Below are positions 2,398-63,339 of a stretch of 64,000 bases of DNA, piece after piece. How positions within the stretch are numbered: the stretch's first letter is position 1; every line of letters starts with the position of its first letter. The notes beneath the pieces are model-generated. The model worked only from the letters and a program-made list of their open reading frames with translations, was not told the origin of the DNA and did not search any database. The stretch spans positions 15,716 to 79,715 of the forward strand of contig JBDRKI010000102.1 in the NCBI GenBank assembly GCA_043814095.1, given 5' to 3'. A program made the position numbers and the translations under genes. This DNA is from Armatimonadota bacterium (GTDB lineage Bacteria > Vulcanimicrobiota > JACPDS01 > JBDRKI01).

Positions 2398-2419
2398 ACC
2401 TGAAATCTTGGAGGATATA

Positions 2420-5001: not shown

Positions 5002-7176
5002 TTATATCGGCGCTTTTGAGTCTTTTAAAATTTCGGGGAGTTTATCCGTTATTTTAAGAAAAGCATCAACAACCGCCGGGTCAAATTTAATTCCCTTAAG
5101 CTTTTTTATTTCTTCCACTGCTTCTTCGGTATCCATGGCTTTTCTGTAAGGCCTGTCGGTAGTTATGGCGTCATAGTAATCAGCCAGTCCGATAATTTTA
5201 GCCCCAAGGGGGATTTCCGCGCCTTTTAGGCGGGCCGGGTAGCCGGATCCGTCTATGTTTTCATGATGCGCCCTTACCAGAGGAGTGACATTGTCTAAAA
5301 AATGTATTTCTTTAAGTATTTCATAACCGCGCGCGGGATGGGACCGCATTATTTCCTGCTCATCTTCCGTTAACGCGCTCTTTTTCAGGAGAATTTCGTC
5401 TCTTATGCCGATTTTGCCTATATCGTGAAGATAACCGGCTATTTCTATCTTGGAAATTTCTTCACTGGGTAAACCCATCTCGCGGGCGATATATCCCGAT
5501 ATTTTTGACACTCTGTCCGAATGGTACTGGGTATAGGGATCTCTCGCGTCTACCGCTTTTACCAGGGATTTAAGAGTGTCTTTGTATGACTGCTTCAGAT
5601 CCTTATAAAGATCTCCTACTTTTTGCCCCTGCTGGGCGTGTTCCACTCCTATAACAGCCAGAAGCTGAAGGGTTGAGAAAAGCGTAAGATCTACGTCTGA
5701 GCTAATAATTAATTCAGATGCTTTCTGAAACTGTGATATGGCATTATTAAAGTCGCCGCTTCTTGAACTTGCGGCGCCCAGAGCAAAATAAGCGTGAGCG
5801 CTGGAAGGGTTTAATTCCAGTATTTTTTCATAAGATTTTATTGCTTTGTCAAAATCCTGCAGTTTAAAATAAACGGCGCCTAAATAATAGTAAGCGTACA
5901 TATCTATGGGATTTATCTGTATTGTTTTTTGGAGTTCTTCTATAGCCTGAGTAAGCTTGTTTAATTTAAAATATGTCACACCGAGAAGGTTTCTGGCAAA
6001 AGCATCCTTGGGATTAATATTCAAGGTCTTTTTAAATGACTCGGCCGCTTCAGGAAGCTTATTTAAGCGCAGGTAAACCTGGCCCAGACTGTAATGCGCG
6101 TAGCCGTGAGAGGGCACAAGACTTATCACCGTTTTATATTCCTTTACGGCTTCATCTAATTTTCCGAGCTGAGTGTAAACTTCAGCCGTATAATAACGGA
6201 CATCATCATCTTCAGGGTAAAGTTCAGTAACTTTCTGGAAGTATTTTAACGCAAGTTCGGCTTTACCGAGATTTTTATAAAGGAGCGCAAGGTTGAAATT
6301 CGCTTCTCTGTAATCGGGTTTTATCCGCAAAGCCAGATGGTATTCTTCAATTGCCTCATCCATTTTAAATTGTTTTTCAAATATTTTTGCCAGCTCAAAA
6401 TGAGGTTCGGCAAAATCGGGATCCGTATCGGCAGATTTTTTAATGAAAGAAACAGCGTCATTAAAGTTATTCTGCATTGAATAAATAAGCCCCAGGTAGT
6501 AATTGGCAAGTATGTGATTAGGTTTGGTTCTTAATATGTGTTCAAGGTTCTTTAAGCTTTCGGCTATTTTTCCTTCTTTATAAAGGGACGCGCATAATGC
6601 GGAGATGACGGGGATGCTGTTCGGTTTTTGTTTTAACTCTTCTTTGAAGTGATCTGAAGCCTGCTTTTTGTCGCCGAGCAATGAGTAAATAAAGCCCAGG
6701 TAATAATTTGCCATTTCAAAATTAGGTGATTTCGCGATAAGCTCCCGGAAAGCGTCTTGGGCTTTCTTGTAATCTTTTAAGAAAATAAAAGCCTTGCCCG
6801 CGTTGGAACACGTAAAGGGGTGAGTATTCTGGGTATTAAGGTATTTTTCCCATAAATCTATGCATTTTTTTATAATATCCTGTTTATTATAATAATTAAT
6901 CTTATCTATCCGCAAATTACCGTCAGAATCTATGATTTTTTCCCATGAAGATATAGCTTCGCTGAAACGCCCTTTCAGAGTGTAAATAAGGCCCAGATTA
7001 AACAGAGCTTGATGCAAAAATATGTTGTATTGCAAGGCTTTTTCGTATTCGGTAAGAGCGTCATCTATATCGCCGTTTTCATCTAAAAGCAGGGCCAGTT
7101 CATAGTAAGCTTGCGCGCTATCCGGATTTTGTTCTGATTTTTGTCTTGCTTTTTTTATGAGTATGTCATTTTTCAT
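5002..7176 (-). CDS. TPR-repeat protein fused to a C-terminal HD-GYP phosphodiesterase domain (c-di-GMP signalling)
   Basis: About 13 TPR-like repeats in the N-terminal ~500 aa. The C-terminal part carries HD..HDIGK..HHE..GSGYP motifs. Confidence 0.8.
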   Translation of the reverse strand: MKNDILIKKARQKSEQNPDSAQAYYELALLLDENGDIDDALTEYEKALQYNIFLHQALFNLGLIYTLKGRFSEAISSWEKIIDSDGNLRIDKINYYNKQDIIKKCIDLWEKYLNTQNTHPFTCSNAGKAFIFLKDYKKAQDAFRELIAKSPNFEMANYYLGFIYSLLGDKKQASDHFKEELKQKPNSIPVISALCASLYKEGKIAESLKNLEHILRTKPNHILANYYLGLIYSMQNNFNDAVSFIKKSADTDPDFAEPHFELAKIFEKQFKMDEAIEEYHLALRIKPDYREANFNLALLYKNLGKAELALKYFQKVTELYPEDDDVRYYTAEVYTQLGKLDEAVKEYKTVISLVPSHGYAHYSLGQVYLRLNKLPEAAESFKKTLNINPKDAFARNLLGVTYFKLNKLTQAIEELQKTIQINPIDMYAYYYLGAVYFKLQDFDKAIKSYEKILELNPSSAHAYFALGAASSRSGDFNNAISQFQKASELIISSDVDLTLFSTLQLLAVIGVEHAQQGQKVGDLYKDLKQSYKDTLKSLVKAVDARDPYTQYHSDRVSKISGYIAREMGLPSEEISKIEIAGYLHDIGKIGIRDEILLKKSALTEDEQEIMRSHPARGYEILKEIHFLDNVTPLVRAHHENIDGSGYPARLKGAEIPLGAKIIGLADYYDAITTDRPYRKAMDTEEAVEEIKKLKGIKFDPAVVDAFLKITDKLPEILKDSKAPI

Positions 7177-28393: not shown

Positions 28394-28588
28394 GTGAATA
28401 TGATTAAAAAAGTTATCAGTATTAATAAAACCAAAGATTTTTCTGAGATAAGATCGAATCTGTCTTTCTGGCTGTCAAAACCATCAGAAGAGCGTATTTT
28501 TGCTGTAGAATTATTAAGGAGACAAATGCATGGATATTCAACAAGACTTCAAAGAACTGCTCGAGTTATTCAACGCAAACAAGGTTGA
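28394..28588 (+). CDS. Small hypothetical protein (64 aa) overlapping the start of the downstream nucleotidyltransferase gene in a different frame
   Basis: ORF with a PSEERIFAVELLRRQ segment. Its last 59 nt overlap the next gene. Coding status uncertain. Confidence 0.35.
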   Translation: MNMIKKVISINKTKDFSEIRSNLSFWLSKPSEERIFAVELLRRQMHGYSTRLQRTARVIQRKQG

Positions 28589-28979
28589 GTATGTTATTGT
28601 CGGCGCTTATGCATTGGCGCTTCACGGAGCACCTCGAAGTACCGGGGATATAGATATTCTTGTGGGGACTGACAAAATCAATGCAGAACGAATTCTTAAA
28701 GCATTAAATGAATTTGGTTTTGGTTCATTAAATTTAAAAGTTGAAGATTTTACAACGCCTGATAATATCATACAGCTTGGAGTGGCTCCGGTTCGAATTG
28801 ATATTATAACAACAATTACCGGGGTTTCCACAGAAGATGCGTTTTCTGGACGAATAGCTGATAAATACGGAGATGCACCCGTATATTATCTGGGCTTAAA
28901 TGAATTTATTGAAAACAAAAAAGCTCTTGCAAGAAAGAAAGATCTGGCAGACATTGAAGCCCTTGATAAGCTTGATTGA
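28530..28979 (+). CDS. Minimal nucleotidyltransferase (Pol-beta superfamily, MNT-like) protein
   Basis: GAYALALHG..RSTGDIDILV matches the GS..DxD nucleotidyltransferase core. 149 aa. Confidence 0.6.
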   Translation: MDIQQDFKELLELFNANKVEYVIVGAYALALHGAPRSTGDIDILVGTDKINAERILKALNEFGFGSLNLKVEDFTTPDNIIQLGVAPVRIDIITTITGVSTEDAFSGRIADKYGDAPVYYLGLNEFIENKKALARKKDLADIEALDKLD

Positions 28980-29062
28980 TTTTTTACGGAAATATATATG
29001 AATAAAAAAGTCCAAATAGCAATCCTACTATTAATAACTTAAAAGGAAATATAATAATATTA

Positions 29063-29094
29063 AAGAATAACCCAGTAAAGGTTATTCTTTTTAT
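29063..29094 (+). terminator. Terminator hairpin (AGAATAACC-CAGTAAA-GGTTATTCT) plus TTTT after the nucleotidyltransferase gene
   Basis: 9-bp perfect stem followed by a T-run. Confidence 0.5.
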
Positions 29095-29112
29095 TATATG
29101 GAGGTATTGTAT

Positions 29113-29535
29113 ATGAAAGATGACGGAAAAAAATATTTAAAGGACATGGATAAGATTTTTAACCGGTTTGGCGAAATCCAGAAAAGATTTAACGCGGGCA
29201 GGGATGGCATTAAAGCCATAGTCTCTTTTATAGGCGAGATGTCAAGGAAAAAAACTCCTGCTTTTGCGCTGGATGATCCTATACTCGTAAGGGGCAGTGA
29301 GCTTATGAAGGAAGTTATAGATTCTCTGGATGAACAGCTTAAAGCCGCCAAAAAAGTATCTGCTCCTACCGAGTTTTCAAAGTTCCATAAGGATCTTCTG
29401 GAATCGTTGAAGCTGCAGGTAAGCGGGTATAAAGAGATGACTGATATGTTCGCTGATTATAAGGTTACGCACGCTTTAAAAGGAAAAGATAAGGTAACTA
29501 AAGGCGTAGAACTTATTGAAAAAGCGGTAATATAG
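29113..29535 (+). CDS. Hypothetical protein (~140 aa)
   Basis: ORF with GGAGG inside the ORF-track N-terminus, which places the real ATG at 29113. No recognised family. Confidence 0.5.
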   Translation: MKDDGKKYLKDMDKIFNRFGEIQKRFNAGRDGIKAIVSFIGEMSRKKTPAFALDDPILVRGSELMKEVIDSLDEQLKAAKKVSAPTEFSKFHKDLLESLKLQVSGYKEMTDMFADYKVTHALKGKDKVTKGVELIEKAVI

Positions 29536-29536
29536 T

Positions 29537-30841
29537 GTGAACTGTGAAGTCACTGTAGATAAGATATCATACGGCGGGGAAGGTATAGCAAGAACAAACA
29601 ATATGGTTGTCTTTATACCGGGTGCTGTTCCCGGTGACAAGCTGGAAATTAAGCTTACCGAGCATAAAAAAAACTACGCAAGAGCTGAAATAGTAAAAAT
29701 TGTAGAGCCCTCCTCCCGCAGGATTAAACCCAAATGCAAATATTTTAATGTTTGCGGGGGATGCAGTTTCCAGAATATTGATTATAAAGAGCAGCTGAAC
29801 ATAAAAAAACAGATAGTTGAGGACTCTTTTTTCAGGTTCGGCAAGGGTCTCTGTGTAAAAGTAAAGGATCTTATCTGTTCGGAAAAAAAGTTCGGCTTCA
29901 GGAGCAAAATCCAGTGGGTGGCTAAAGATAATACTCTGGGTTTATATAAAAAAGGCACTCATAATGTAATTGATATAGATTACTGTTTTCTTGCAGATAA
30001 AAAAGTTAATGATTTAACTTCGTTAATAAAAAGAAAGCTTGCCGGAGCTGATTATAAGGTATTAAAGCATATTATAATCAGGGAATCATTATATAAAGAT
30101 GAATTTCTCGCGGTTTTTGTATTAAATAGCGGAAAAATTGAAGGTTTTAAAAAGATCACAGAAGAGCTTATGAGTGAGTTTCCGGGTTTGGCAGGTGTTT
30201 CGGCTAATATAAATGAAAAAATATCAAATGTGATTTTAGGAGATAAGAATATCCTGCTTGAAGGAGAAGGTTATTTAGAGGAAAAGGTTGATAATCTTTT
30301 CTTTTATTACAGCGGGACGCTGTTTTTCCAGGTTAATACAGGTCAGCTGGAGAAAATAATAAAGATTATAAGGGAAAATGTATTATTAACAGGGAATGAA
30401 GTTGTTTTAGATTTATACAGCGGGGTAGGGGCACTCTCCCTTCATATGGCAGGGGAATGCAGAAAGGTAATTTTGTCTGAAGAGTCCCCCGGAGCCGAGG
30501 AATTTTTCACAAAATCGGCTAATAGGAATAATATAACCAATGTTGAATTTATAACCGGTAAAGTTGAGGATTTTTTAGATAAGTTTCATAAAGAAGGCGG
30601 TTCTGCGGACTTAGTGATACTTGATCCGCCCCGTAAGGGTTGTTCTGACGAAGTTATAAGATGCCTGGGATTAATAAAAGCGCCTAAAATAGTATATTTA
30701 TCGTGCAATCCCGTCACACTGGCAAGGGACTGCAAAAAACTTGCGGGTTATGGCTATAAAGTTAATTTAATACAGCCGGTTGATATGTTCCCGCAGACAT
30801 ATCATGTTGAAGTGCTGGCTGTCCTGGAGAATAAGGAGTAG
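29537..30841 (+). CDS. TRAM-domain RNA (uracil-5-)-methyltransferase of the RlmD/RumA family
   Basis: N-terminal TRAM, a Cys cluster (CKYFNVCGGCSFQ) and a C-terminal SAM-MTase with DPPRKG motif. GTG start. Confidence 0.75.
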   Translation: MNCEVTVDKISYGGEGIARTNNMVVFIPGAVPGDKLEIKLTEHKKNYARAEIVKIVEPSSRRIKPKCKYFNVCGGCSFQNIDYKEQLNIKKQIVEDSFFRFGKGLCVKVKDLICSEKKFGFRSKIQWVAKDNTLGLYKKGTHNVIDIDYCFLADKKVNDLTSLIKRKLAGADYKVLKHIIIRESLYKDEFLAVFVLNSGKIEGFKKITEELMSEFPGLAGVSANINEKISNVILGDKNILLEGEGYLEEKVDNLFFYYSGTLFFQVNTGQLEKIIKIIRENVLLTGNEVVLDLYSGVGALSLHMAGECRKVILSEESPGAEEFFTKSANRNNITNVEFITGKVEDFLDKFHKEGGSADLVILDPPRKGCSDEVIRCLGLIKAPKIVYLSCNPVTLARDCKKLAGYGYKVNLIQPVDMFPQTYHVEVLAVLENKE

Positions 30842-30844
30842 GTT

Positions 30845-33079
30845 ATGGGACTTTTCCCGAGCGAAGGATTTGAAAAACTAAAACAAAAAGCGCTGGATAT
30901 ATTAAGGGCAAATAATATATGTTATCTTGGCGTTGAATATATATTTCTGGCATTTCTCTTAATCAATGAGAACCTTTTCAAAAAAGCCGGTGTGGATATA
31001 GAGAAAGTAGTTAAAGATATACTTGAACTGTCAATAAGAGGAGAGACAGCCCCTGAGTCGGTAGGAGTTACTCCCAGATACAAAATTATATTCAAAGAAG
31101 CGCAAAAGCTGGCTGAAGAAGAAAAATCCGACAGGGTCGAAGTCCCCCATTTTATAAAAGCAATGTTTGAAGACGAAAACAGCCTGCCTTCTGTTGTGCT
31201 TAAATGGAATAATATAGATAAAACGATTGTTACGGCCAATCTTGATAAGGCAAAAGACGTATCCGAAGCTTCCCCTGATAAACAGGAATCGAAAACTTCT
31301 AAAAAAGAAGATAAAAAATCATTTATTGAGAAATTCGGCAAAGACCTTGTTGTTGAAGCTAAAGCAGGCATGATAGATCCGGTAATAGGCAGGGAGAAAG
31401 AGATAGACAGAATAAAACAGATTCTTTTAAGAAAAACCAAAAGCAATCCTGTCTTAATAGGAGAGGCGGGAGTGGGCAAAACCGCTGTTGTTATGGGGAT
31501 TGCAAAAGCAGTGGCGGAAGGAAGGGTGCCGGATCAGCTTAAGGATAAGCGTATAATTGAACTTAACATAGCTTCCGTTCTTGCGGGGGCAAAATACCAG
31601 GGTGAGTTTGAAGAACGCCTGGAGAAAATAATAAAAGAAGTGGAAAAGAGCAAAGATATAATATTATTTATTGATGAGATCCATAATATAACGGGGGCAG
31701 GCAGGTCAGGTTCCGGTCTTGATGCCGGAAATATTTTAAAACCGGCGCTGGCTAAAGGCTCTTTCCCTGTTATAGGGGCTACCACGGTAGATGAACACAG
31801 AAAACACATTGAATCAGATCCTGCTCTGGAGAGAAGATTCCAGCCGGTCATAATTAACGAACCTTCTATTGAAGAAGCAATTGATATATTAAAGGGGTTA
31901 AAAGAAAGCTTCCAGGTTCATCACGGGGTTGAGTTTGAAGAAGAAGCTTTAATTGAAGCTGTTAAGCTTTCAAACAGGTATCTTACAAACAGAAACCTGC
32001 CTGATAAAGCCATAGATCTTATTGATGAGGCGGCGGCCAAGGTTAAAATAGAAGAGGTGGATTCTAAGGTTATCACCAAGGATATGATAGCTCAGGTTTT
32101 ATCTTCATGGACAGGGATACCTGTGGGAAAGATGACTTCACAGACTTCACAGGATCTTTTGAAGTTGGCGGATAATCTGCGTGAGGAAGTTATAGGTCAG
32201 GATAAAGCGGTTGATGCTGTATCCCAGACAGTGCAGATGGGCTACTCAGGTCTTGCTAATTACAAAAAACCTCTGGGAGTATTTTTATTCTTAGGTCCTA
32301 CGGGTGTGGGTAAGACATATCTTGCCAAGCGCCTGGCAGCCAAATTGTTCAGTTCCGAAAAAGATTTAATACGTCTAGATATGTCCGAATTTATGGAGAA
32401 GCATTCGGTGGCAAAACTTATAGGGGCGCCTCCCGGTTATGTAGGTTACGGGGAGGAAGGCATACTTACAAAATCCGTCAGGACAAAACCGTATTCCGTG
32501 GTGCTGTTAGACGAGATTGAGAAAGCCCATCCTGAGGTTTTTGATATATTCCTCCAGGTATTTGATGAGGGCAGGTTGACTGATTCCCGCGGCAGGACTA
32601 TTAATTTCTGCAATACTATTATAGTTATGACTTCAAATATAGGTTCTACGAGCATAGACAAAGACGGCAATGTGATATTGGTTGATATGGAAGATAAAAC
32701 TTCTCAGGAAGATATAATGAAGCTTGTAAGGAAAACATTCAGGGCGGAATTTTTAAACAGGATAGACGAAGTGGTTTTCTTTAAATCCTTAACTGAAGCC
32801 GAACTGAAAAAAATAGTTAAGTTGAGTTTCAGCGAAGCGGAGAAAAGACTTAAAGAGAAGAATATAAACTGGATTATATCTGATGAAGTTGTAGATCTGG
32901 TATGCAATCAGGGGTATAACCCCGCTTACGGGGCAAGGCCGTTAGAACGGGCCATAGGCACCCTTATACTGAAACCGCTTTCTTCGGAACTTTTAAAAGA
33001 GAATTTCAAGGAAGGCGATATTGTCCAGATTAAACTTAATCCGTCCACAAACAAGATAGAGTTTTTAAGGGAGAAATAA
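30845..33079 (+). CDS. Clp/Hsp100 AAA+ ATPase (ClpA/ClpC-like, two NBDs, no M-domain, no obvious ClpP-binding tripeptide)
   Basis: Two Walker A boxes ([16 protein letters not shown]). Only a short linker between NBD1 and NBD2. The region after TSNIGS reads DGNVILVD and lacks an [ILV]G[FL] loop. Confidence 0.8.
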   Translation: MGLFPSEGFEKLKQKALDILRANNICYLGVEYIFLAFLLINENLFKKAGVDIEKVVKDILELSIRGETAPESVGVTPRYKIIFKEAQKLAEEEKSDRVEVPHFIKAMFEDENSLPSVVLKWNNIDKTIVTANLDKAKDVSEASPDKQESKTSKKEDKKSFIEKFGKDLVVEAKAGMIDPVIGREKEIDRIKQILLRKTKSNPVLIGEAGVGKTAVVMGIAKAVAEGRVPDQLKDKRIIELNIASVLAGAKYQGEFEERLEKIIKEVEKSKDIILFIDEIHNITGAGRSGSGLDAGNILKPALAKGSFPVIGATTVDEHRKHIESDPALERRFQPVIINEPSIEEAIDILKGLKESFQVHHGVEFEEEALIEAVKLSNRYLTNRNLPDKAIDLIDEAAAKVKIEEVDSKVITKDMIAQVLSSWTGIPVGKMTSQTSQDLLKLADNLREEVIGQDKAVDAVSQTVQMGYSGLANYKKPLGVFLFLGPTGVGKTYLAKRLAAKLFSSEKDLIRLDMSEFMEKHSVAKLIGAPPGYVGYGEEGILTKSVRTKPYSVVLLDEIEKAHPEVFDIFLQVFDEGRLTDSRGRTINFCNTIIVMTSNIGSTSIDKDGNVILVDMEDKTSQEDIMKLVRKTFRAEFLNRIDEVVFFKSLTEAELKKIVKLSFSEAEKRLKEKNINWIISDEVVDLVCNQGYNPAYGARPLERAIGTLILKPLSSELLKENFKEGDIVQIKLNPSTNKIEFLREK

Positions 33080-33081
33080 TT

Positions 33082-33369
33082 ATGATAAAACTGGAGATAA
33101 TCGGCGGCCCTTATGACGGTAAGGAATATAAATTCAATAAATCAATAAAGATAGGCAGGGATAAATCTGCCGACATATCCATATATTTTGACAACTTTGC
33201 GTCCCGGATACACACTGGCTTGGAAATTGAAGGTAAAAAGTGTATATTAAAAGATATGAACAGCACTAACGGCACATATATTGGCAATAATAAAATAAAT
33301 GAGGTAGAATTAAAGGATAAAGATATATTTAAAGTCGGAAGAACGTTATTTAAAGTGGAGATATATTAA
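33082..33369 (+). CDS. FHA-domain protein (95 aa)
   Basis: GR..D....SR.H....SxNGT pattern (GRDKSADISIY..SRIHTG..STNGTYIGN). Translationally coupled to both flanking genes. Confidence 0.75.
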   Translation: MIKLEIIGGPYDGKEYKFNKSIKIGRDKSADISIYFDNFASRIHTGLEIEGKKCILKDMNSTNGTYIGNNKINEVELKDKDIFKVGRTLFKVEIY

Positions 33370-35529
33370 ATGATAGGACAGATTATAGGCAATTATAAAA
33401 TAGAGGAAAGAATAAAAAGCCAGGAACAGTATGCCATTTACAGGGCTAAGGATACCATATTTAATGTTCCCGTTTATTTAAAGATTTTATCTCACAAGAT
33501 AGTAGACAATCAGGATGTAAAAAAGAATTACTTATCCTGTGCTTCCCAGTATCTTAAGCTGAAGCATCCCAATATCTTAAATCTTTTAAAAACAGGCGAT
33601 GAAGGGGGATATACCTACCTTGCTTATGAGAATTTTTCAATTAAGACTCTCTATGAGTATTTAGGTGAAAACCCGGCTCTTACCCTGCATGAAAAAATGG
33701 ATATATTTTTTCAGATCTGTAAAGGTCTGAGTTATGCCCATCAGGATTGTATTCTGCACGGTAATTTAACGGCAGGGAATGTATTTATAGATAATAATAA
33801 AAATATAAAAATTGTGGATTTCGGAATTTCGGCTATTGAAATGCTGCAGACAGAAATTCACCAGAACCAGATACTTGAAGGCTTTTATTATTTCCCGCCC
33901 GAGAAGATAAACAAAGAACCCTTAGACGAGAAATCCGATCTGTATTCCCTGGGCGTTCTCTTATTCTACATATTGAGCAGAAAATACCCCTTTGAAGCCG
34001 AAGGGCTTAACCAGCTGTTCGGCAGAAAGCTGGAAGGTCACGCGGCAAGCATATCTTCATATGTTAACGATATTCCCCAGAGTATATCCGATGCAATATC
34101 CAAGCTTATTAAAAATAATAAACAGGAACGTTATTTAAATATTAAGGAACTTCTAAATGATATTAATAACTCCGGCTTAGATATTCAATACAATATCCCT
34201 TTATCCCCGAAACAGTCAAACTGGTTTGTTAATAAGGCAGGGGAAGCTTACCTTGCCGGAGATATAAATGCTTCTATTGAGAACTGGACCAAAGCAATTG
34301 AATTTGACCCTTATAATCCCGGATTATATACAAACCTTTCTAAAATATACTTGGAACAGGGAGATTACGCAAAAGCGGCTGAAAATTACAAAAAAGCCCT
34401 TTCGGTGGAGCCTTTTAAAACCAGCTGGCGCGTGGAACTCGCCAACTTACTTAAAAAAAGCAGTCAGTTCGGTTCCGCTCTTTCTGAATACGAGATTATA
34501 AAGAAGCTGGATTCTAAATACCTGCCGTATTATTTTAATGCCGGGAACTGCCTGTATTTCCTTAAAAGATACGGCGAAGCCATTACAGTATGGCTTGAAG
34601 GATTAAAACGCGATCCCGATAAACTGAGACTTCTGTATAACCTTGGGGTTGCCGAATACGCGATAGGCAAGACGGAAAAAGCACTTGAGTACTGGAGCAA
34701 GGTTCTGGAGATAAATAAAAATTTTGTAAAGGCCTCCTATAACCTGAGTATTGTAGAATTAAACAATAATAATACAGATAAAGCGTTCCTGTTATGGGAA
34801 GAGCTTGATAAAATATCCAATATGCCCGAGATAAAATTAAACCTAGGTAACAGTTATTATAACAAAAAAGACCATGATAAAGCCATGGAATACTGGAGTC
34901 TAGCCCTGGAATTAAATAAGGACTGCTGGCAGGCATATTTTAACCTCGGGATTTATTATTTCGGTAAAGATATAAATAAATCCAGAGAAATGTTTGAAAA
35001 AGCATCTCAGGCAAAGCCGGATTTATGGCTTGCTTACTGGAATCTGGGCTATGTTGCACAGAAAGACGGAGACCATAAAGCTTCTTCTGAATATTTTGAC
35101 AAAGTTCTGCAGCTTAACCCCGGATACTGGCAGGCAAATTACTATCTGGGCGAAAAACTCATAAAAGAAAATAAAATGGATGAAGCCCAGAAATGTTTTA
35201 TGAAGATATTTGACACACAGACTGACTTTTCGGAAGATTTCTGTAAAAATATGGGAGCCATCTTCTATAAAAATAGTCAGATTGACAAAGCTGTTGACTG
35301 CTGGGCAAAAACAGTATCGCATCATAATTTCCAGTGGGATGAAAAAGATGACGGTAAGGATATCCCCGACAGGATATATAAAGCTGCAAAGATTATGGTG
35401 CAAAAAGAACTTAAAGAAAAAGGGGATGGGGCCTCATTCTTTGTTCATGACCAGAAAGTCCACTTTAATATAAAGCCGGAGCTTATCCCGGCCGACTGCG
35501 GGGATATTATTCCTGTAATTGACTATTAA
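33370..35529 (+). CDS. Ser/Thr-kinase-like protein with a degenerate catalytic core (predicted pseudokinase) fused to TPR repeats
   Basis: Kinase fold recognisable (DFG, PPE, DLYSLG) but the Gly-loop is replaced, HRDLKPxN is replaced by HGNLTAGN, and the alpha-C Glu is not evident. C-terminal ~400 aa are TPR-like. Confidence 0.7.
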   Translation: MIGQIIGNYKIEERIKSQEQYAIYRAKDTIFNVPVYLKILSHKIVDNQDVKKNYLSCASQYLKLKHPNILNLLKTGDEGGYTYLAYENFSIKTLYEYLGENPALTLHEKMDIFFQICKGLSYAHQDCILHGNLTAGNVFIDNNKNIKIVDFGISAIEMLQTEIHQNQILEGFYYFPPEKINKEPLDEKSDLYSLGVLLFYILSRKYPFEAEGLNQLFGRKLEGHAASISSYVNDIPQSISDAISKLIKNNKQERYLNIKELLNDINNSGLDIQYNIPLSPKQSNWFVNKAGEAYLAGDINASIENWTKAIEFDPYNPGLYTNLSKIYLEQGDYAKAAENYKKALSVEPFKTSWRVELANLLKKSSQFGSALSEYEIIKKLDSKYLPYYFNAGNCLYFLKRYGEAITVWLEGLKRDPDKLRLLYNLGVAEYAIGKTEKALEYWSKVLEINKNFVKASYNLSIVELNNNNTDKAFLLWEELDKISNMPEIKLNLGNSYYNKKDHDKAMEYWSLALELNKDCWQAYFNLGIYYFGKDINKSREMFEKASQAKPDLWLAYWNLGYVAQKDGDHKASSEYFDKVLQLNPGYWQANYYLGEKLIKENKMDEAQKCFMKIFDTQTDFSEDFCKNMGAIFYKNSQIDKAVDCWAKTVSHHNFQWDEKDDGKDIPDRIYKAAKIMVQKELKEKGDGASFFVHDQKVHFNIKPELIPADCGDIIPVIDY

Positions 35530-35652
35530 TCTGTAATTTTTCTTCTATTTACCGGGTTTTTACCAAAAATACTCCATTTGACCTATATTTTTATTTATAT
35601 ATCCATGTTAAAATAATTATAGGAAAGATATTAATATAATTTGGAGTTGCAT

Positions 35653-35937
35653 ATGGTATGGGAAGGATTAAACAGCGGATTTAATGTTCAGGAATATAAA
35701 CAAAGTCTCAGGGAATCTGTAAAGCTTAAAAATCTGAAAGTAGGTATAGATCTAAATCTGGCTTTAAAAGAAGAAGAACTGCAGAAGCTTAAAGAAGATG
35801 ATAATGTTAATGAGATTAAATTAAGAAATATGGAGAAAGATGTTAAAAAGCTAAAAAGAAAAGCCGGAATATTGAAAGAAAAATATGAAATAATCGCAGA
35901 AAAACTGCAGAATTACGAAAGCCAGTTCTTTACATAA
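35653..35937 (+). CDS. Hypothetical coiled-coil protein (~94 aa)
   Basis: K/E-rich ORF with GGAG 5 nt before the ATG at 35653. Confidence 0.4.
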   Translation: MVWEGLNSGFNVQEYKQSLRESVKLKNLKVGIDLNLALKEEELQKLKEDDNVNEIKLRNMEKDVKKLKRKAGILKEKYEIIAEKLQNYESQFFT

Positions 35938-53063: not shown

Positions 53064-55649
53064 TTATTTTTTAAATTTTTCTTTTAAATACTTCCTTGCT
53101 TCTTTTTTATCCTTTATTATACCATCTATCTGGGCATCTTCAAGTGCTGTTAAGGCTTTTCTGAAAAAAGGTCCGGGGGTATAGTTCCATTTTATCAGGT
53201 CATTTCCTGTTACAAAGAATTTTATATTCTTAAGATGTGACAGGAAATAAACAATCCTGTGCCTTACCGATATAAAGTTTGTCCTTGCTATTATGTATAT
53301 AAGAGCTTCTATCGCAAGCGGGGAGAGCAGCCGGTATATCTGGCTTTTGGTTATTGTTTTTGAAGAAAGCTTCCTTATTAATAAAGATGCCGTATCTTTA
53401 TCAAGCTTTCTTTTTCGGACTTCCTCTATAGAAAATTTAAATCTTTTCGCGACTTCATCTATCTTTTCCGAGGAAAGCTGGCTTACAAGAATCATAAAAT
53501 AAATGATCCATTTTTTAGCGTTTTCTTTTTTTAATATTTTCTTATATTTGATCATAAGGGCTGTAGCTTCCTGGAGTGTGGCTACTAATTTCTGGTTTAA
53601 AAATATATCTTTATGTATAACTTTTAAAATATTAAGTTTTGCCATCCGCTTTAATGCCGGCACGGGTTTTTCTTCGCTTAATATAAGGGTTATCTCATCC
53701 CTTATCCTCTCCCCTGTCAGCTGGTCAAAAATATTGCTCTTAAGAGCGTTTAAGAGCAGCTCTTCCGTATGGTGATCCATTTTAAAATGGTACCTCTGTT
53801 CAAACCGTACTGCCCTGAATATCCTGGTAGGATCTTCTATAAAGCTTAAATTATGCAGGACCCTTACGATACCGTCTTTTAAATCATTCTGTCCGCCGAA
53901 GAAGTCCAAAAGGCTCCCGAACCCTTTTTTATTGAGCTGGACCGCCAGGGCGTTTATCGTAAAATCTCTTCTGTATAAATCCTGTTTTATGGATGTGGCC
54001 CATACATGAGGCAGGGCGGCGGGACGGGTATAGTATTCAACCCTGGTAGATGCCACATCCACTTTGCAGTGTTTTGTGAATACTATTGCGGTTTTAAATT
54101 TTTCATGTGTTATGACTTTGGCTTTTAAAGCCTTGCCCAGCTCCCCTGCGAATAATACGCCGTCACCTTCCACAACTATATCTATATCAAGGTTCTCAAT
54201 GCCCAGCAAAAGGTCTCTTACAAATCCTCCGGCAAGAAATATGTTAATACCCAGCATATCGGCTATTTTAGAACAGGTTTTAAATAATTTCTGCATATTT
54301 AAAGGCAGCTGTTCTATATTTGTTTTTGTGTCATGCCAGTGCCTGCCGGCTTTAATATGCATGCCGTGCAGTGTTGTAAGAATATCAGTACGGGTTACAA
54401 TGCCTTTAATAATACCGTCTTCTATTATAGGCAGCCGCCCTATATTATGGTCTGTCATTATTCTCTGAAGTGTATTTAAGGATGTATACGGATTGGCGGT
54501 AACAACGTCTTTTAACATGAATTCTTCTATACTGGCGTTAGCCAGTCCGTGGTGTATGGCTTTATCTATGTCATGTCGGGTTATAATCCCCGCGACCCTT
54601 CTGTCTTTTAAAATAACCAGCCCGCTGTGCCCGAACCTTACAATAGCTTTCTGGGCATCGGCTATTGTCTTATCTTCTTCAAGATTTATGTATCTTACAG
54701 GGGAACTCATGATATCTTTAGCCATAATAGTCGGCTTTAATTCTTTTTCAAGTGTATCATAAAGCCTTTTTTCGGCTGTTTTCATCTGTTTATGCTTAAT
54801 TACAACGGAAGCCGCGTTAGGATGGCCTCCCCCGCCTAACGGCGCGAGGATCCTGCTTAAATCAATCTCGGGCTGTTTGCTTCTTCCTATTATTAATATT
54901 TTGTCTTTCATCTTTATAAGCGTAAATACGATATCCACGCCTTCTATGTCAACAAGCCTGTGAACCACCAGGGATATCTCATCTATAAATTCTTTTGCAT
55001 GAGCCCTGGCTATAAGTATTTTAAAGCCCCTTACATGTTTAACATGGGAATTTACTATAAGGCTGTTCAATAATTTTATCTGAGGATCGCTTAAGCTGTG
55101 ATGGATATATTCCGATATTACCTTTAGATTCGCTTTTTTGCTTAAAAGGTACGCGACTGTCTCAACGTCTTCTTTAGTTGTATGCGAGAAAGTTAGCGAG
55201 CCCGTTTCTTCATATATGCCCAGAGCGAATAAGGTCGCCTCTAAAGGAGTTATGGGTATTTTCTTCTCCCTTATTTTCCTTGCCAGCATTGTTACCGTAG
55301 CGCCTAATACTTCAATATAATTCTCATCACCCTGAATTGATTCGGGTGCGGGCGGATGGTGATCGTAAATATGTACTTCCACAAGCGGGCTTATGAAAAA
55401 TTCTTTAAAAGCCCCTACCCTATCGGGCAGGCTGGTATCAACGACGATTAATTTTGATATTTCAAGATTCTTAACTTTTCTGGGATACTCTATATTAAAA
55501 TAATCTTTATATAAATGAACAAACTCCCTTACATTCTGGCTTGGGGTGGACGTAAAAAAAAGCCGGGCCTGCGGGTAGAGTTTAGATGCCGCAACCATAG
55601 AGGCAAGAGAATCAAAATCAGCCGTAACGTGAGATATAATTACTTCCAT
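53064..55649 (-). CDS. Multidomain DHH/DHHA1 - CBS pair - polyA polymerase/CCA-adding nucleotidyltransferase fusion protein
   Basis: N-terminal DHH (HVTADFDSLAS), a middle CBS pair and a C-terminal Pol-beta NTase head (GGFVRDLLLG..DIDIVV) with a tRNA-NT-like body. Confidence 0.75.
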   Translation of the reverse strand: MEVIISHVTADFDSLASMVAASKLYPQARLFFTSTPSQNVREFVHLYKDYFNIEYPRKVKNLEISKLIVVDTSLPDRVGAFKEFFISPLVEVHIYDHHPPAPESIQGDENYIEVLGATVTMLARKIREKKIPITPLEATLFALGIYEETGSLTFSHTTKEDVETVAYLLSKKANLKVISEYIHHSLSDPQIKLLNSLIVNSHVKHVRGFKILIARAHAKEFIDEISLVVHRLVDIEGVDIVFTLIKMKDKILIIGRSKQPEIDLSRILAPLGGGGHPNAASVVIKHKQMKTAEKRLYDTLEKELKPTIMAKDIMSSPVRYINLEEDKTIADAQKAIVRFGHSGLVILKDRRVAGIITRHDIDKAIHHGLANASIEEFMLKDVVTANPYTSLNTLQRIMTDHNIGRLPIIEDGIIKGIVTRTDILTTLHGMHIKAGRHWHDTKTNIEQLPLNMQKLFKTCSKIADMLGINIFLAGGFVRDLLLGIENLDIDIVVEGDGVLFAGELGKALKAKVITHEKFKTAIVFTKHCKVDVASTRVEYYTRPAALPHVWATSIKQDLYRRDFTINALAVQLNKKGFGSLLDFFGGQNDLKDGIVRVLHNLSFIEDPTRIFRAVRFEQRYHFKMDHHTEELLLNALKSNIFDQLTGERIRDEITLILSEEKPVPALKRMAKLNILKVIHKDIFLNQKLVATLQEATALMIKYKKILKKENAKKWIIYFMILVSQLSSEKIDEVAKRFKFSIEEVRKRKLDKDTASLLIRKLSSKTITKSQIYRLLSPLAIEALIYIIARTNFISVRHRIVYFLSHLKNIKFFVTGNDLIKWNYTPGPFFRKALTALEDAQIDGIIKDKKEARKYLKEKFKK

Positions 55650-57345: not shown

Positions 57346-58944
57346 ATGAAAAATAAACATAAAATTTATCTGTTAATATTAATATTTTTATCAGTACTGC
57401 TGCTTTTCTTCCGTCTAGGAGATTACAGTTTATGGGATACCGACGAACCCCTGTACTCCCAGATGGCAAGGGAATTCAATTACCATAATGACCTTCTTAC
57501 CCTTTACTGGAACGGCGAGCCCTGGTTCTGTCATCCCCCGTTATACATGTGGCTTACAATGGTAAGCGGGAATCTGTTCGGCTGGAATGAATTTGCCGTG
57601 AGGTTTCCTTCCGCTTTATTCGGCGTTCTTATAATTATTCTCACTTATTTTATGGGTAAAAGATTTTACAATGAAGATGTGGGATTCCTGTCGGGTTTGA
57701 TTTTAATGACATCTCTTCAGGTATTTGTTCAAGGCAGGTTATCCAATTTAGATACTCTCTTTACGTTTTTCCTTATGCTCTCAACTTATGCCTGTTATGC
57801 GGGGGTTACGGATAACTCCCGTAGGTATATACTGTTTTTCTGGCTTTCATGCGCTTTGGGAACTCTGGCTAAGGGGCCTTTCGCTCTATGCCTCCCCTTG
57901 GGCCTTATATTCCTATGGCTTTTCTCTACAAAGAAACTGAAGGAATTTAAAAAGGTATTTATATATGAAGGCATCATAGCTTATGTTATTTTAGGCGGCT
58001 TCTGGTATATAGCGGGGCTTATTAAATACAAAACAGAATTTTACAATTTAGTATTTAAATATTTTATATTCCAGAGGGTTACAACAGCGGTAATGGACCA
58101 GAGCGGCCCTGTTTATTTTTACATACTCATATTTATAGCGGGATTCTTACCCTGGGTTTTCCTTTTCGTGCCTGCCGTTATTGATTACTTTAAGAACAGG
58201 AAAAATGAAATTTCTGTTTTCTTGCTTATATGGGCGGTTATACCGTTTTTATTCTTCTCGCTTGTCCAGACAAAACTGCCCAATTACATATTATTCATAT
58301 ACCCCGCATGCGCTATTATGCTTGCTAACTATTTTTACAACTACATTTACATTAAAGACTTAAAAACTTCGCTTTTGATATCTTTAATAGTTTACACTTT
58401 ATTTTACACGGCGGTTATTACTTCTTTCGTGCTTCTTGCAAGCGGGAAATATCCCAATGAATATATGGCGGCGCGCGGGCACCTGCTTCCCCTTTTATAC
58501 ATAATAATAGGCACTGCTTTATTCAGCTGGTTTTTCTTTGCATTCAATAAGAGGAAATACGTGCTCCCCGCGATCATAGCGGGAACTTTTATACTTTACC
58601 TTTCGATTGTCAACATGGCCGTGTATATTGACCAGTTTAAACCCGTAAAGCCCATAGCATTGAAGATAAAAAGCTTAAAGTCGCCTTCCGAAAAAATGAT
58701 AGTATTCACAGAGAAGTTTAATAACAGCGCAAGCTTTGTATTTTACATGAACGAAAAGATTACATTCATGGAAAAGATTGATGAACTTAAGGAATTTTTA
58801 AATAATAATCCCGGAGCTTATATCCTTATAAAAAGAGGCATTAATAACGGTGGTGACAGATATTACCAGCTTAAAACGGAAATGCCGGGAATAAAAACAG
58901 TATTCGTTAATGACGGTTATGTGGTCTGCAGGGCTACAGATTAG
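57346..58944 (+). CDS. GT39/ArnT-family membrane glycosyltransferase (dolichyl-phosphate-mannose protein mannosyltransferase-like)
   Basis: Polytopic membrane protein with an N-terminal DxD-like motif (WDTDEP) and an ArnT/PMT-like loop. 532 aa. Confidence 0.7.
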   Translation: MKNKHKIYLLILIFLSVLLLFFRLGDYSLWDTDEPLYSQMAREFNYHNDLLTLYWNGEPWFCHPPLYMWLTMVSGNLFGWNEFAVRFPSALFGVLIIILTYFMGKRFYNEDVGFLSGLILMTSLQVFVQGRLSNLDTLFTFFLMLSTYACYAGVTDNSRRYILFFWLSCALGTLAKGPFALCLPLGLIFLWLFSTKKLKEFKKVFIYEGIIAYVILGGFWYIAGLIKYKTEFYNLVFKYFIFQRVTTAVMDQSGPVYFYILIFIAGFLPWVFLFVPAVIDYFKNRKNEISVFLLIWAVIPFLFFSLVQTKLPNYILFIYPACAIMLANYFYNYIYIKDLKTSLLISLIVYTLFYTAVITSFVLLASGKYPNEYMAARGHLLPLLYIIIGTALFSWFFFAFNKRKYVLPAIIAGTFILYLSIVNMAVYIDQFKPVKPIALKIKSLKSPSEKMIVFTEKFNNSASFVFYMNEKITFMEKIDELKEFLNNNPGAYILIKRGINNGGDRYYQLKTEMPGIKTVFVNDGYVVCRATD

Positions 58945-59884
58945 CCCTTTTAGCTATTTGTTCGTCTATATATATTATTATTTCGGAAGGTCCCCAGCTT
59001 GTAACAAGCAGGTTTATCCTGTCACCGCTTGAATGAGTGCTTTCATATATGGTCTGAGGTCCCGTAAGATCGTTTAATACGGCCTTTACATTCATTTTTT
59101 TGCTGGATGCGGGGACTACAAAGATTATATTGTCCTGTTTTAATTTTAAATCAATATATCTTGTACCCGCGCTTATTTTAAAAGATACGTTCGTGCCCGG
59201 ATAAACGAGCTCATCTTCATTAATGCTCTGCCATAGAATCTGGCCTAAGTCTTCTTCGTCGCTGTATTCCCATTTAATACTGCCTGTTTTAAGTTTTAAA
59301 TCCTCCATTTTGCTTCTTGCGTCTTTTATATTCATACCCGCAAATTTAGGTACTCTCACGGAAGGCTGTCCGCCCGAGTTAACGGTTACGTCAACTTTAG
59401 TGCCTTTTTTTACTCTTGAACCTGGGAGAGGGTTCTGGTTGAATATCTGCTCCTGTTCAACCGTATTATCCTGGCCCTTTTCCACTTTGCCTGCATCAAG
59501 CATATAGTTTGAAAGCATTATTTTGCCTTCCCTTAAAGTAAGGCCTATTAATTTCGGAACTTCGCATAAATCGGGGCCGCTGCTTACTACAACAAGTATA
59601 TCGCGCCCTTTTTTTACTTTTACGCCGGCAAGAGGCTCCTGTGATATCACGGTGTTTTCTGGCAGTTTGTTATCATATCTTGAATCAACAACCATAATAC
59701 TCAAATGTTTTGATTTTAAGGTTTTTTCCGCGTCATCTACCGAAATACTTGTAACATTAGGCACTTCAATTTCGCCTGTGGTGCCCCAGAAAGTGTAGAA
59801 CATATTAAACAGAAACCATACAAAGAAAATGACCGATATTATGATAAATCCGTACAGTAATCCTTTTTTAACAGATTCTCCCAT
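58934..59884 (-). CDS. Membrane-anchored protein with three PASTA domains
   Basis: N-terminal TM helix followed by three ~65-aa PASTA-like repeats (VP..G....A...L...GL). Directly downstream of the kinase gene. Confidence 0.65.
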   Translation of the reverse strand: MGESVKKGLLYGFIIISVIFFVWFLFNMFYTFWGTTGEIEVPNVTSISVDDAEKTLKSKHLSIMVVDSRYDNKLPENTVISQEPLAGVKVKKGRDILVVVSSGPDLCEVPKLIGLTLREGKIMLSNYMLDAGKVEKGQDNTVEQEQIFNQNPLPGSRVKKGTKVDVTVNSGGQPSVRVPKFAGMNIKDARSKMEDLKLKTGSIKWEYSDEEDLGQILWQSINEDELVYPGTNVSFKISAGTRYIDLKLKQDNIIFVVPASSKKMNVKAVLNDLTGPQTIYESTHSSGDRINLLVTSWGPSEIIIYIDEQIAKRANL

Positions 59885-59896
59885 AGCATTTCTCCT

Positions 59897-61900: not shown

Positions 61901-61910
61901 ATTAAACCTC

Positions 61911-63314
61911 TTATCTCAAGGCGGTTTCCAGTACTCTCCTCGCGATCGGCGCCGCCGTAACTCCGCCGTATCCGCCGTTTTCCACTATCACGCAGACCAG
62001 AACTTCGGGATCTTCAGCGGGAGCAAATCCGATAAACCACGCGTGCTCTATCCCACCGGGGTTTTCAGCAGTTCCTGTTTTACCGGCAACCGATACCCCC
62101 TGTATTTTCGCGCGCGTACCTGTGCCTTTATTGACTGCATCGACCATTATATTTTTTACTGTTTCCGCTGTATTTTTGTCTATAGGATTATACAATATTC
62201 TGGATTTATTTACAAATATTTTATTAAAGTTTTTATCTATAACTTCTTTTAATAAATAAGGCTTCATGATTTTTCCTTCATTCGCGACGGCACTGACAAC
62301 CATAGCCATCTGAAGAGGGGTTATTACAATTTCTCCCTGCCCGAACCCGCTTTGAGCAAGCACACCGCTGTAAAAGGTATCTTTTCTTGAGATATGAGCT
62401 CTCTCAACAGGTACCTCTAACGGCACTTTTTTTGTTATACCGAATCTCTTAGCGTATTTTATGAAAAGGTCCGGCCCGATTGTAAGGGCTATATCCGCAA
62501 AAGCGATATTGCACGAATATATAAGGGTTTCGGAATAATTAAGACGCCCGTGCGCGGCATCATGAGCTTCATGAAGGGTGTATTTTCCCACTTTGTAGTA
62601 TCCCGGACAGTTAATAGAGTAAGTCTCATCTATTGAAGCCGAATCAAGAGCCGCTGAAAGGGTGAATACTTTAAAAGTAGATCCCGGCGGGTATACGCTC
62701 TCCGTGCACCTGTCTATTAAAGGAGCGCTTTTATCTTCTATAAGATACTGCCATTCGGAATTAAGTTTGTTGGGGTTAAAACCAGGGGAAGACGCAAGAG
62801 CTAGAACCTCCCCTGTTTTGGGATTTATAGCTACTACAGCGCCTTTTTTACCGTTAATAAGTTCATATGCTTTTAACTGTACCTTTTCATCTATGGTTAA
62901 TATACAGTCAAACCCGCTCCATGCTTCTTCTTTCAAAAAGCGTTTTAATTTAAATAAAGAATCTACTCTGCTGTCAAAAAGAAGGTAGCTGTTCAGATAT
63001 TTTTCAAGGCCTGATTTTCCGTAAATTAAATTATCATAACCGACCAGCTGGGCTATGGCATAAGAATAAGGGTAAAACCTTTCCCATTCATCCGGATTAT
63101 CCGCGTCCTGCCTGCTGAAAGCAAGTGTTTTCATGTTGGCGGAGTATATATCGCCGCGTCTGGCAATATTTTCTTTTAATCTGGGGTCAGACGCCAGGTT
63201 ATGCAGTTTTCCGGAAGCGAAGAACTGGATATAGGCAAGATAAAGAATAAGGATTACAAATATTATGCCGAAAAGTTTATACAGTTTTTTAATATTTTTA
63301 TCTATATTATTCAT
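61911..63314 (-). CDS. Class B penicillin-binding protein (PBP2/FtsI-like transpeptidase)
   Basis: N-terminal TM anchor, a dimerisation domain and a transpeptidase domain with STFK, SCN and KTGT motifs. Confidence 0.85.
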   Translation of the reverse strand: MNNIDKNIKKLYKLFGIIFVILILYLAYIQFFASGKLHNLASDPRLKENIARRGDIYSANMKTLAFSRQDADNPDEWERFYPYSYAIAQLVGYDNLIYGKSGLEKYLNSYLLFDSRVDSLFKLKRFLKEEAWSGFDCILTIDEKVQLKAYELINGKKGAVVAINPKTGEVLALASSPGFNPNKLNSEWQYLIEDKSAPLIDRCTESVYPPGSTFKVFTLSAALDSASIDETYSINCPGYYKVGKYTLHEAHDAAHGRLNYSETLIYSCNIAFADIALTIGPDLFIKYAKRFGITKKVPLEVPVERAHISRKDTFYSGVLAQSGFGQGEIVITPLQMAMVVSAVANEGKIMKPYLLKEVIDKNFNKIFVNKSRILYNPIDKNTAETVKNIMVDAVNKGTGTRAKIQGVSVAGKTGTAENPGGIEHAWFIGFAPAEDPEVLVCVIVENGGYGGVTAAPIARRVLETALR

Positions 63315-63339
63315 TCTTTACTCTTTCCCTGATTCGGTT

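Follow-up and report, generated by a model that had tools for sequence, protein, structure and literature searches.

A conserved gene array of a Clp ATPase without M-domain, a minimal FHA protein and a TPR pseudokinase in Vulcanimicrobiota: a possible phosphothreonine-signalling module around an Hsp100 unfoldase

Hsp100 unfoldases either come under control by way of their M-domain (Hsp70, MecA, McsB) or act through ClpP, and we know of no account of how a ring that lacks both the M-domain and ClpP docking is targeted or restrained. The docking of forkhead-associated (FHA) domains on the phosphothreonine of a kinase is an established mode of action. In this work we describe a locus where these two themes stand side by side. 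It lies in a stretch of 64,000 nucleotides from a genome labelled Armatimonadota bacterium (GTDB lineage Bacteria; Vulcanimicrobiota; JACPDS01; JBDRKI01; GenBank assembly GCA_043814095.1, contig JBDRKI010000102.1, positions 15,716 to 79,715 of the forward strand), which we call the window. On the plus strand, the locus encodes a Clp ATPase of 744 amino acids (30845-33079), an FHA protein of 95 (33082-33369) and a kinase-like protein of 719 that carries tetratricopeptide repeats (TPRs; 33370-35529). The open reading frame (ORF) listing and the translations bear out the coordinates and strand given for all three genes by an initial annotation, which had read them as a plausible phospho-dependent adaptor module that feeds substrates to an unfoldase or regulates it. 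From sequence comparison, we consider the chances about even that the locus is a phosphothreonine-signalling module around a stand-alone Hsp100 unfoldase.

The closest described precedents are found in secretion. In type VI secretion (the T6SS), phosphothreonine that depends on PpkA is recognised by Fha, activating a machine that uses the ClpB-like ClpV (PMC3953482). The PpkA-Fha1/TagH-ClpV/TssH set resembles our locus in that both bring together genes for a Hanks-type kinase, an FHA reader and a double-ring ATPase that is related to ClpB and independent of ClpP. However, the T6SS structural genes are not seen here, and ClpV has an M-domain as well as a VipB-binding N-domain. The kinase PpkA is located in the membrane and has a periplasmic domain, unlike the kinase-like protein of the window, which is cytoplasmic and carries TPRs, and Fha1 is larger than the bare 95-residue domain of the window. 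In the type VIIb secretion system the pseudokinase EssB/YukC binds the FHA domains of EssC/YukB, apparently without phosphorylation (PMC9436818). This is a precedent for a pseudokinase, FHA and ATPase state such as that of the window clade. That said, EssC is an FtsK/SpoIIIE-type membrane ATPase with the FHA fused to it and EssB is a membrane protein, whereas the window encodes three separate soluble proteins, with an ATPase of Hsp100 type and a pseudokinase that seems recently derived from an active ortholog.

The initial annotation had compared the locus with McsA/McsB-ClpC, where a kinase gene also stands beside an Hsp100 and a phospho-mark directs or activates the unfoldase. The likeness holds as a conceptual analogy, although the two secretion systems are closer precedents: the Mcs mark is phospho-arginine, which the N-domain of ClpC reads, neither an FHA nor a Hanks-type kinase is involved, and ClpC has an M-domain and docks ClpP, unlike the Clp of the window. 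The PknB-FhaA/FhaB/GarA proteins of mycobacteria provide a further comparison, as the kinase domain of our locus is PknB/Stk1-like (its best NCBIfam match) and the FHA protein is closest to Rv0020c/FhaA. The window FHA, however, has no transmembrane or linker regions, lies outside the cell-wall cluster and is coupled to an unfoldase. For the ATPase, the nearest published concept is ClpI of the Actinomycetota, a third group of double-ring Clp proteins that is equidistant from ClpB and ClpC and has subtypes with or without the ClpP-docking motif (PMC10149685). ClpIb is a predicted stand-alone unfoldase, ClpI keeps an M-domain of ClpC length, which is a control element in ClpB and ClpC, and conserved gene neighbours were not found by its authors (PMC10149685). 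The clade described here is likewise equidistant from ClpB and ClpC, but it has no M-domain, has a conserved FHA neighbour and occurs in other phyla. A full-text literature search for FHA together with Hsp100, ClpB, unfoldase or pseudokinase returned only papers on T6SS, T7SS and ClpI, and no Clp/Hsp100-FHA-kinase module outside secretion systems. The parts and the kinase-FHA-AAA+ logic are known; what is new is their combination, of a distinct M-less, ClpP-independent Hsp100 clade, its dedicated minimal FHA protein and the transition from active kinase to pseudokinase.

The Clp has the general features of a class-1 Clp/Hsp100 AAA+ unfoldase. There are two rings, with Walker A and B motifs in each (GEAGVGKT and ILFIDE in D1, GPTGVGKT and LLDEIE in D2), a pore-loop tyrosine in both (KYQGEFE and GYVG) and a D2-small domain; the Pfam matches are Clp_N (a weak repeat), AAA, AAA_lid_9, AAA_2 (222 bits) and ClpB_D2-small (81 bits). 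As had been proposed, it is without an M-domain and a ClpP-docking loop. Its residues 402 to 407 align to residues 394 to 518 of Thermus thermophilus ClpB, so that about 120 residues of the M-domain, in ClpB a long coiled coil inserted in D1 on which Hsp70 docks, are gone; the same gap of about 120 residues appears in the alignment with the window's own ClpB, and matches to both ClpB and ClpC are split in two at this position. There is no match to PF02151, the UVR-type short M-domain of ClpC, and about 36-43 residues separate the PDK and WTGIP motifs, where ClpC has 95. Where Staphylococcus aureus ClpC has its 'AGF' docking loop the Clp reads 'DKD---GNVILVD', with no [LIVA]-G-[FL]. The lack of an M-domain implies that there is no control site of the Hsp70 or MecA type, and the lack of the docking loop suggests unfolding or remodelling rather than degradation.

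None of the established family models claims this protein. It scores 844.9 bits against the ClpB model TIGR03346 (cut-off 1232.1), in two pieces, 717.9 against the ClpA model TIGR02639 (cut-off 993.15), with the docking tripeptide absent, and 688.2 against the ClpV/TssH model TIGR03345 (cut-off 884.95), which is also below its ClpB score. Among solved structures, ClpB (643 bits) and ClpC (640 bits) are equally distant from it and ClpA (510 bits) is further away. A canonical ClpB with a full M-domain is encoded 26 kb upstream, at 2408-4996 on the plus strand (TIGR03346, 1393 bits against a cut-off of 1232), therefore the M-less Clp is an additional paralog and not the only disaggregase of the cell. 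In a neighbour-joining tree of 735 well-aligned columns, from which the M-domain was left out, ten M-less Clps were monophyletic in 200 of 200 bootstraps and fell outside ClpB and ClpC, with the window clade as the first branch inside the group. The spacing between the PDK and WTGIP motifs, which is 95 residues in ClpC and 159 in ClpB, is 36-53 residues in about 90 of the 120 nearest clusters of homologs, and the homologs with this short spacing are 740 to 1174 amino acids long. On this evidence the M-less Clps appear to be a sizeable unnamed Hsp100 group. The D1 Walker A motif GEAGVGKT was tried as a signature of the clade and rejected, as a metagenome scan with it gave mostly ordinary ClpB and ClpC proteins that share the motif. 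One FHA-linked member with no kinase nearby, the Clp of locus L090 (278-2692), carries 23 inserted residues in its D2 loop, V-G-F among them, and may be a ClpP-docking variant inside the clade, reminiscent of the ClpIa/ClpIb split.

The FHA protein consists of nothing but this domain (PF00498, E = 3e-15; 56.9 bits, where the cut-off is 20.7). The residues of the phosphothreonine pocket are intact, namely G25-R26, S41-R-I-H44 and S62-T-N-G65, and the corresponding GR, SRxH and STNGT motifs are kept in all 14 aligned orthologs. Its nearest solved structure is the FHA domain of Mycobacterium tuberculosis Rv0020c (36.9 bits). Is it then a generic cell-division factor of the FhaB or GarA type, unrelated to its neighbours? 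We rejected both identities, as the protein scores 58.4 bits against the FhaB/FipA model NF049868 (cut-off 125) and 29.3 bits against the OdhI/GarA model NF041660 (cut-off 200), and it moves together with its neighbours between genomes.

The third protein consists of a kinase fold (about residues 1-270), a TPR array (about 285-650) and a clade-specific C-terminal extension (about 655-719). It matches Pkinase with 113.9 bits and TPR models many times. Although the fold is present, the motifs of an active Hanks-type Ser/Thr kinase are not, and the initial annotation was right to call it a pseudokinase: the Gly-rich loop reads KSQEQY, HRD has become HGN, the Lys of the catalytic loop is a Thr and the αC Glu is gone, while the VAIK Lys and DFG are retained. 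Against the Stk1/PknB model NF033483 it reaches 177.3 bits (cut-off 450), and it has TPRs and no PASTA domains. All three window-clade sequences are in this degenerate state; the relatives share the losses, with HKN for HRD, no Gly-rich loop and, in one of them, NFG for DFG. Even so, conservation of the dead kinase domain inside the window clade is 52-54%, against 51-57% for the TPR region. All three proteins also carry an extension at the C-terminus, some 60 residues long (FQWD...KELKEKG...KPEL...IDY; 35332-35529), that is not found in any active ortholog and so appears to have been gained alongside the loss of catalysis. A kinase domain as conserved as the TPRs, together with a gained extension, suggests a retained scaffold role and not decay.

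Close relatives of the pseudokinase are few. A word-index search of a collection of 5.8 billion proteins gave just two other clusters at 90% identity, and a library of 1.84 billion representatives contains one representative for it. The word-index search missed a second set of orthologs (BLASTP 325 bits), which we found through the context of the Clp genes. Nor do these orthologs have a precomputed Pfam entry, although they match Pkinase and TPR models strongly; hence absence from such tables is not evidence of absence.

This second set is of the Xenobia type (UBP9/Xenobia is a class of Vulcanimicrobiota). In four loci where the Clp is about 50% identical to ours (L007, L008, L009 and L092), a hypothetical gene is followed by RlmD, a Clp of 740-805 amino acids, an FHA protein of 96 and a protein of 659. 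In L007-L009, where this last protein was examined, it is a full-length ortholog of the pseudokinase-TPR protein (29% identity over 655 residues, E = 7e-106), matches Pkinase with 177-183 bits, has 10-11 TPRs and shows the intact motifs GRGGMG, VAIK, REAQ (with the αC Glu), HRDVKPxN and DFG; the protein of L092 is a putative ortholog by its size and position. An alignment-based scan, taking one genome per species, added 14 further full-length orthologs (L010-L023) that are 54-99% identical to one another. All catalytic motifs are intact in each of the 17 Xenobia-type kinases checked residue by residue (L007-L023), therefore the pseudokinase of the window looks like a lineage-specific degeneration of an active kinase.

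Two side observations concern this group. The taxonomic labels of L010-L023 clash (Burkholderiales, Selenomonadaceae, Bacillota, Vulcanimicrobiota, UBP9 and rumen bacteria) despite kinase-TPR identities of 70-99%; such labels cannot be relied on here, and 'Armatimonadota' as the label of the source genome should be treated with caution. Furthermore, an RsbW-like HATPase_c_2 gene follows the active kinase-TPR gene in L007 (12668-13744), L092 (12712-13761) and L022 (12010-12975), with a receiver domain in the L007 and L092 proteins. It could be a partner-switching output, and it is absent from the window.

The genes of the window are closely packed. The initial annotation listed gaps of 2, 0 and 0 nucleotides; the 2 and one 0 can be read in the sequence, as three genes have just two junctions. 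At the Clp-FHA junction TAA and ATG are 2 nucleotides apart, with GGGAG within the 3′ end of the Clp gene, and at the FHA-kinase-like junction TAA and ATG abut, with GGAG within the 3′ end of the FHA gene. Upstream, an RlmD/RumA-type 23S rRNA m5U methyltransferase with TRAM and methyltransferase domains (29537-30841, plus strand) ends in TAG only 3 nucleotides before the ATG of the Clp, preceded by AAGGAG, so that all three junctions have a Shine-Dalgarno-like site inside the upstream gene. A gap of 1 nucleotide separates RlmD from hyp145, the opening gene of the array (29098-29535, plus strand), whose orthologs lie upstream of RlmD-Clp in other loci. Between hyp145 and the preceding ORF (28530-28979) is a bidirectional terminator-like hairpin (29062-29090; on both strands a stem of 11-12 base pairs followed by a T run), and this is the probable upstream boundary of the operon. 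The tight array of the initial annotation is thereby confirmed, but the transcription unit is probably one of five genes, hyp145-RlmD-Clp-FHA-pseudokinase (29098-35529), rather than three. A small ORF at 35641-35937 was rejected as a further conserved member, as the ORF in the corresponding position of L001 is not its homolog. The preceding ORF, 28530-28979, is a small gene of nucleotidyltransferase fold (DUF6036/MNT-like) between LigA and hyp145; it is missing from the syntenic loci L001, L008 and L009 and looks like a local insertion.

Comparison between genomes shows which of these neighbours stay together. In five metagenomes (L001-L005) the array runs PcrA, LigA, hypothetical gene, RlmD, Clp, FHA, kinase-like, with XerC on the opposite strand and intergenic gaps of 52-123 nucleotides. 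The synteny of the trio, on which the initial annotation had staked its proposal, is thus kept in the relatives examined, both close (L001-L005) and distant (L007-L010, L092). In 10 of 12 clade loci (the window, L001, L005, L007-L010 and L090-L092) FHA is the gene directly behind the M-less Clp. Most of these junctions lie between an overlap of 17 nucleotides and a gap of 2, and in five loci (L007, L008, L090, L091, L092) the end of the Clp gene runs 4-17 nucleotides into the FHA gene. For comparison, a related FHA was found next to ClpB or ClpC in none of 48 control loci. The controls were M-domain-bearing loci with at least 600 nucleotides of downstream sequence, drawn from the metagenome scan built on the GEAGVGKT motif, and FHA detection was by tblastn with four FHA queries. 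RlmD lies directly before the M-less Clp in L001-L003, L007-L009, L090-L092 and L094, with a gap of 0-3 nucleotides or an overlap of 1 in the window, L007, L008, L090 and L091.

Anchoring the count on the kinase gives the complementary picture. Among the 17 Xenobia-type loci L007-L023, four have Clp-FHA-kinase and three (L014, L022, L023) have FHA-kinase with the Clp not nearby. The FHA proteins of the latter share 64-66% identity with the FHA that is linked to the Clp in L007 and are the same ortholog. Conversely, the genes behind Clp-FHA in L090 and L091 are unrelated ones, with the kinase not adjacent. An FHA found either with the Clp or with the kinase alone is the pattern expected if it connects both. 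What is conserved at the core is Clp-FHA with RlmD in front of it, and the kinase is a frequent, not an obligate, neighbour. Finally, a high-GC (guanine plus cytosine) metagenome contig, L163 (374-4483), encodes in succession an Hsp70-like nucleotide-binding protein, a very divergent, unrelated M-less Clp of 758 amino acids and a zinc-ribbon-FHA protein of 161. We take it as an independent recurrence of the Clp-FHA pairing.

We regard the functional linkage of the module as well supported by these comparisons, and to this extent the module proposed by the initial annotation stands. Beyond that we infer the phosphothreonine-dependent regulation or substrate delivery, all protein-protein contacts and the direction of regulation. 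A more specific proposal, which we advance tentatively, is that the locus carries out phosphothreonine-directed unfolding or remodelling, in which the TPR kinase would mark clients or the motor and the minimal FHA would hand them to the ClpP-independent Hsp100. On the wider reading of a signalling module, to which we give about even chances, the ancestral system would be a kinase-FHA-unfoldase circuit. Its motor would be the M-less double-ring Clp, with the translationally coupled bare FHA as a constant phosphothreonine reader. The mark would be written by an ancestral cytoplasmic Hanks-type kinase with a platform of 11 TPRs, kept in the Xenobia-type Vulcanimicrobiota, and could be located on the activation loop of the kinase, on the Clp or on clients held by the TPRs. 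By bridging phosphothreonine to the Clp hexamer the FHA might switch the unfoldase on or off, or deliver marked clients to it. In the window lineage the dead kinase would be conserved as a scaffold, with the mark coming from another kinase; alternatively, the contact between FHA and pseudokinase may now be phospho-independent.

Where might the FHA dock, and which kinase could supply the mark? The activation-loop Thr161 is invariant in six aligned kinases, three of them pseudokinases, and is a candidate docking site. Sites on the Clp itself are weak candidates. One is T706 (32960-32962; RAIxT after sensor 2), which is Thr in all eight FHA-linked Clps, Asn in two unlinked ones and Lys in the ClpB of the window. 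The Clps of L007, L090, L091 and L092 have acidic, Gly-rich tails that share D-x-T-[MIL]-x-G, and in these loci the coding sequence of the tail overlaps the region of the FHA start codon. A candidate source of phosphothreonine acting in trans is encoded outside the operon. The genuine PASTA Ser/Thr kinase that the initial annotation had pointed out (59897-61900, minus strand; Pkinase 196 bits and five PASTA repeats) has intact GDGGMA, VALK, HRDIKPSN and DFG motifs, and it shares a FYFSPEQ motif with the kinase-like protein. It belongs to a cell-wall signalling cluster on the minus strand (58934-63990), together with a partial FtsW/RodA gene, a PBP transpeptidase and a separate protein of 316 amino acids made of PASTA repeats only. 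No FHA or phosphatase gene was seen among ORFs of at least 150 amino acids in the visible part of this cluster.

Several observations weigh against reading the locus as a module of this kind. Two M-less clade members, L093 and L094, have no FHA neighbour; L093 has a different gene context without RlmD, and L094 encodes a long-tailed Clp of 974 amino acids that still stands behind hyp-RlmD. In 10 of the 17 kinase-anchored loci the kinase is alone behind rho and a radical-SAM gene, hence adjacency is not obligatory. The block PcrA-LigA-hyp145-RlmD-Clp-FHA-kinase is common to both lineages, and common descent may account for part of this. At T706, P0123, a close relative from the window clade, has Ser, and the residue is variable across 120 homologs; we rejected this D2-small position as the FHA docking site, and it is a weak lead at most. 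A phosphatase gene linked to the locus was not found. The sample is also small, and every genome in it is an uncultured metagenome-assembled genome.

Common descent leads to the alternative that survives best, although we think it rather unlikely: the gene order is simply inherited, FHA and kinase are an ordinary signalling pair with targets elsewhere, and the Clp is an independent chaperone paralog. The collinearity of the whole block, from PcrA to the kinase, between the window clade and L008/L009 is what this explanation predicts, and it readily accommodates both the ten genomes in which the kinase is away from the Clp and the three with FHA-kinase but no Clp. However, protein identities of 29-50% normally accompany the loss of gene order unless it is selected. 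Clp-FHA persists where the flanks have changed, be it downstream (L090, where L31 and RF1 follow), upstream (L092) or on both sides (L091). The overlapping Clp and FHA genes in five loci, the way FHA goes with either partner, the recurrence of the pairing in L163 and its absence from the 48 controls likewise weaken the idea of an order that is simply inherited, although for the kinase it may hold.

An unlikely sub-case of the signalling module is that kinase and FHA act on the Clp itself, with the phosphorylated Clp docking the FHA, which then replaces the M-domain as repressor or activator. It would fit a motor whose M-domain control element is gone and whose overlapping gene couples the FHA to it stoichiometrically, and both the D-x-T-[MIL]-x-G tails of Xenobia-type Clps and the contrast at T706 between FHA-linked and unlinked proteins offer possible sites. 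The tail motif is, however, absent from the Clps of the window, L001, L008 and L009, and the Ser of P0123 counts against T706.

The first two genes of the array suggest a different role, which we consider distinctly unlikely: hyp145-RlmD-Clp-FHA might act on ribosomes or ribonucleoproteins, clearing 50S intermediates or stalled complexes tied to 23S m5U1939, with FHA and kinase adding growth signalling. RlmD does lie tightly before the Clp in many loci, hyp145 is co-conserved, and L094 keeps hyp-RlmD-Clp without the FHA. Against this, RlmD passes the housekeeping equivalog model (TIGR00479, 355.7 bits, above the cut-off of 183.55), and we found no precedent for cooperation between RlmD and a Clp. 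The Clp of L093 has no RlmD, Clp-FHA of L163 pairs with an Hsp70-like gene instead, and no link to RNA appears in the Clp, FHA or TPR sequences. The hyp145 protein itself is conserved and all-helical (145 amino acids), with orthologs upstream of RlmD-Clp in L001, L007-L009, L092 and L094, the last a locus without FHA. Pfam, NCBIfam and PDB profile searches gave no match, a word-index homolog search returned only the query, and a single-sequence AlphaFold2 model has a mean confidence (pLDDT) of 56. Possibly it belongs to the system as a member so far overlooked.

We rejected as very improbable the reading that these genes derive from a secretion or defence module (type VI PpkA-Fha-ClpV, or an anti-phage kinase system), whether as its remnant or as its variant. 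In its favour, the literature links FHA with a ClpB-like ATPase only for the T6SS, and PADLOC gives domain-level matches, PD-T4-6 and mad6 for the kinase and DolB for the AAA domain. However, those matches are generic, none concerns FHA or hyp145 and no anti-phage system is matched in all its components, no T6SS structural gene or other partner gene is among the genes called in the examined loci, the flanks are housekeeping genes and the position is stable across genomes, unlike that of a mobile island, and this Clp is below the ClpV cut-off and lacks the M-domain that ClpV keeps (PMC10149685).

Elsewhere in the window, we observed two further genes on the minus strand. One (5002-7176) encodes a second large TPR signalling protein, of 724 amino acids, in which a long array of TPRs is joined to a domain of HD-GYP type (HD_5), and a protein of 861 amino acids is a fusion of DHH/DHHA1, tandem CBS domains and the head domain of a CCA-adding enzyme or poly(A) polymerase (53064-55649).

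If the locus is a phosphothreonine-signalling module around a stand-alone Hsp100, it would tie Ser/Thr phosphorylation directly to protein unfolding in bacteria; the more specific proposal of phosphothreonine-directed unfolding would make it a phosphothreonine counterpart of the phospho-arginine/ClpC system. An FHA reader with a TPR kinase is a testable answer to how an Hsp100 ring without M-domain and ClpP docking is targeted, and all components are soluble and of a size that suits reconstitution in vitro even though the hosts are uncultured. It would also give a name to a widespread unnamed clade of Clp proteins. The active kinase and the pseudokinase are a natural before-and-after pair for the change from enzyme to scaffold, and, on the more specific proposal, the window lineage would illustrate the rewiring of a circuit, in which a dead kinase becomes a scaffold fed by other kinases.

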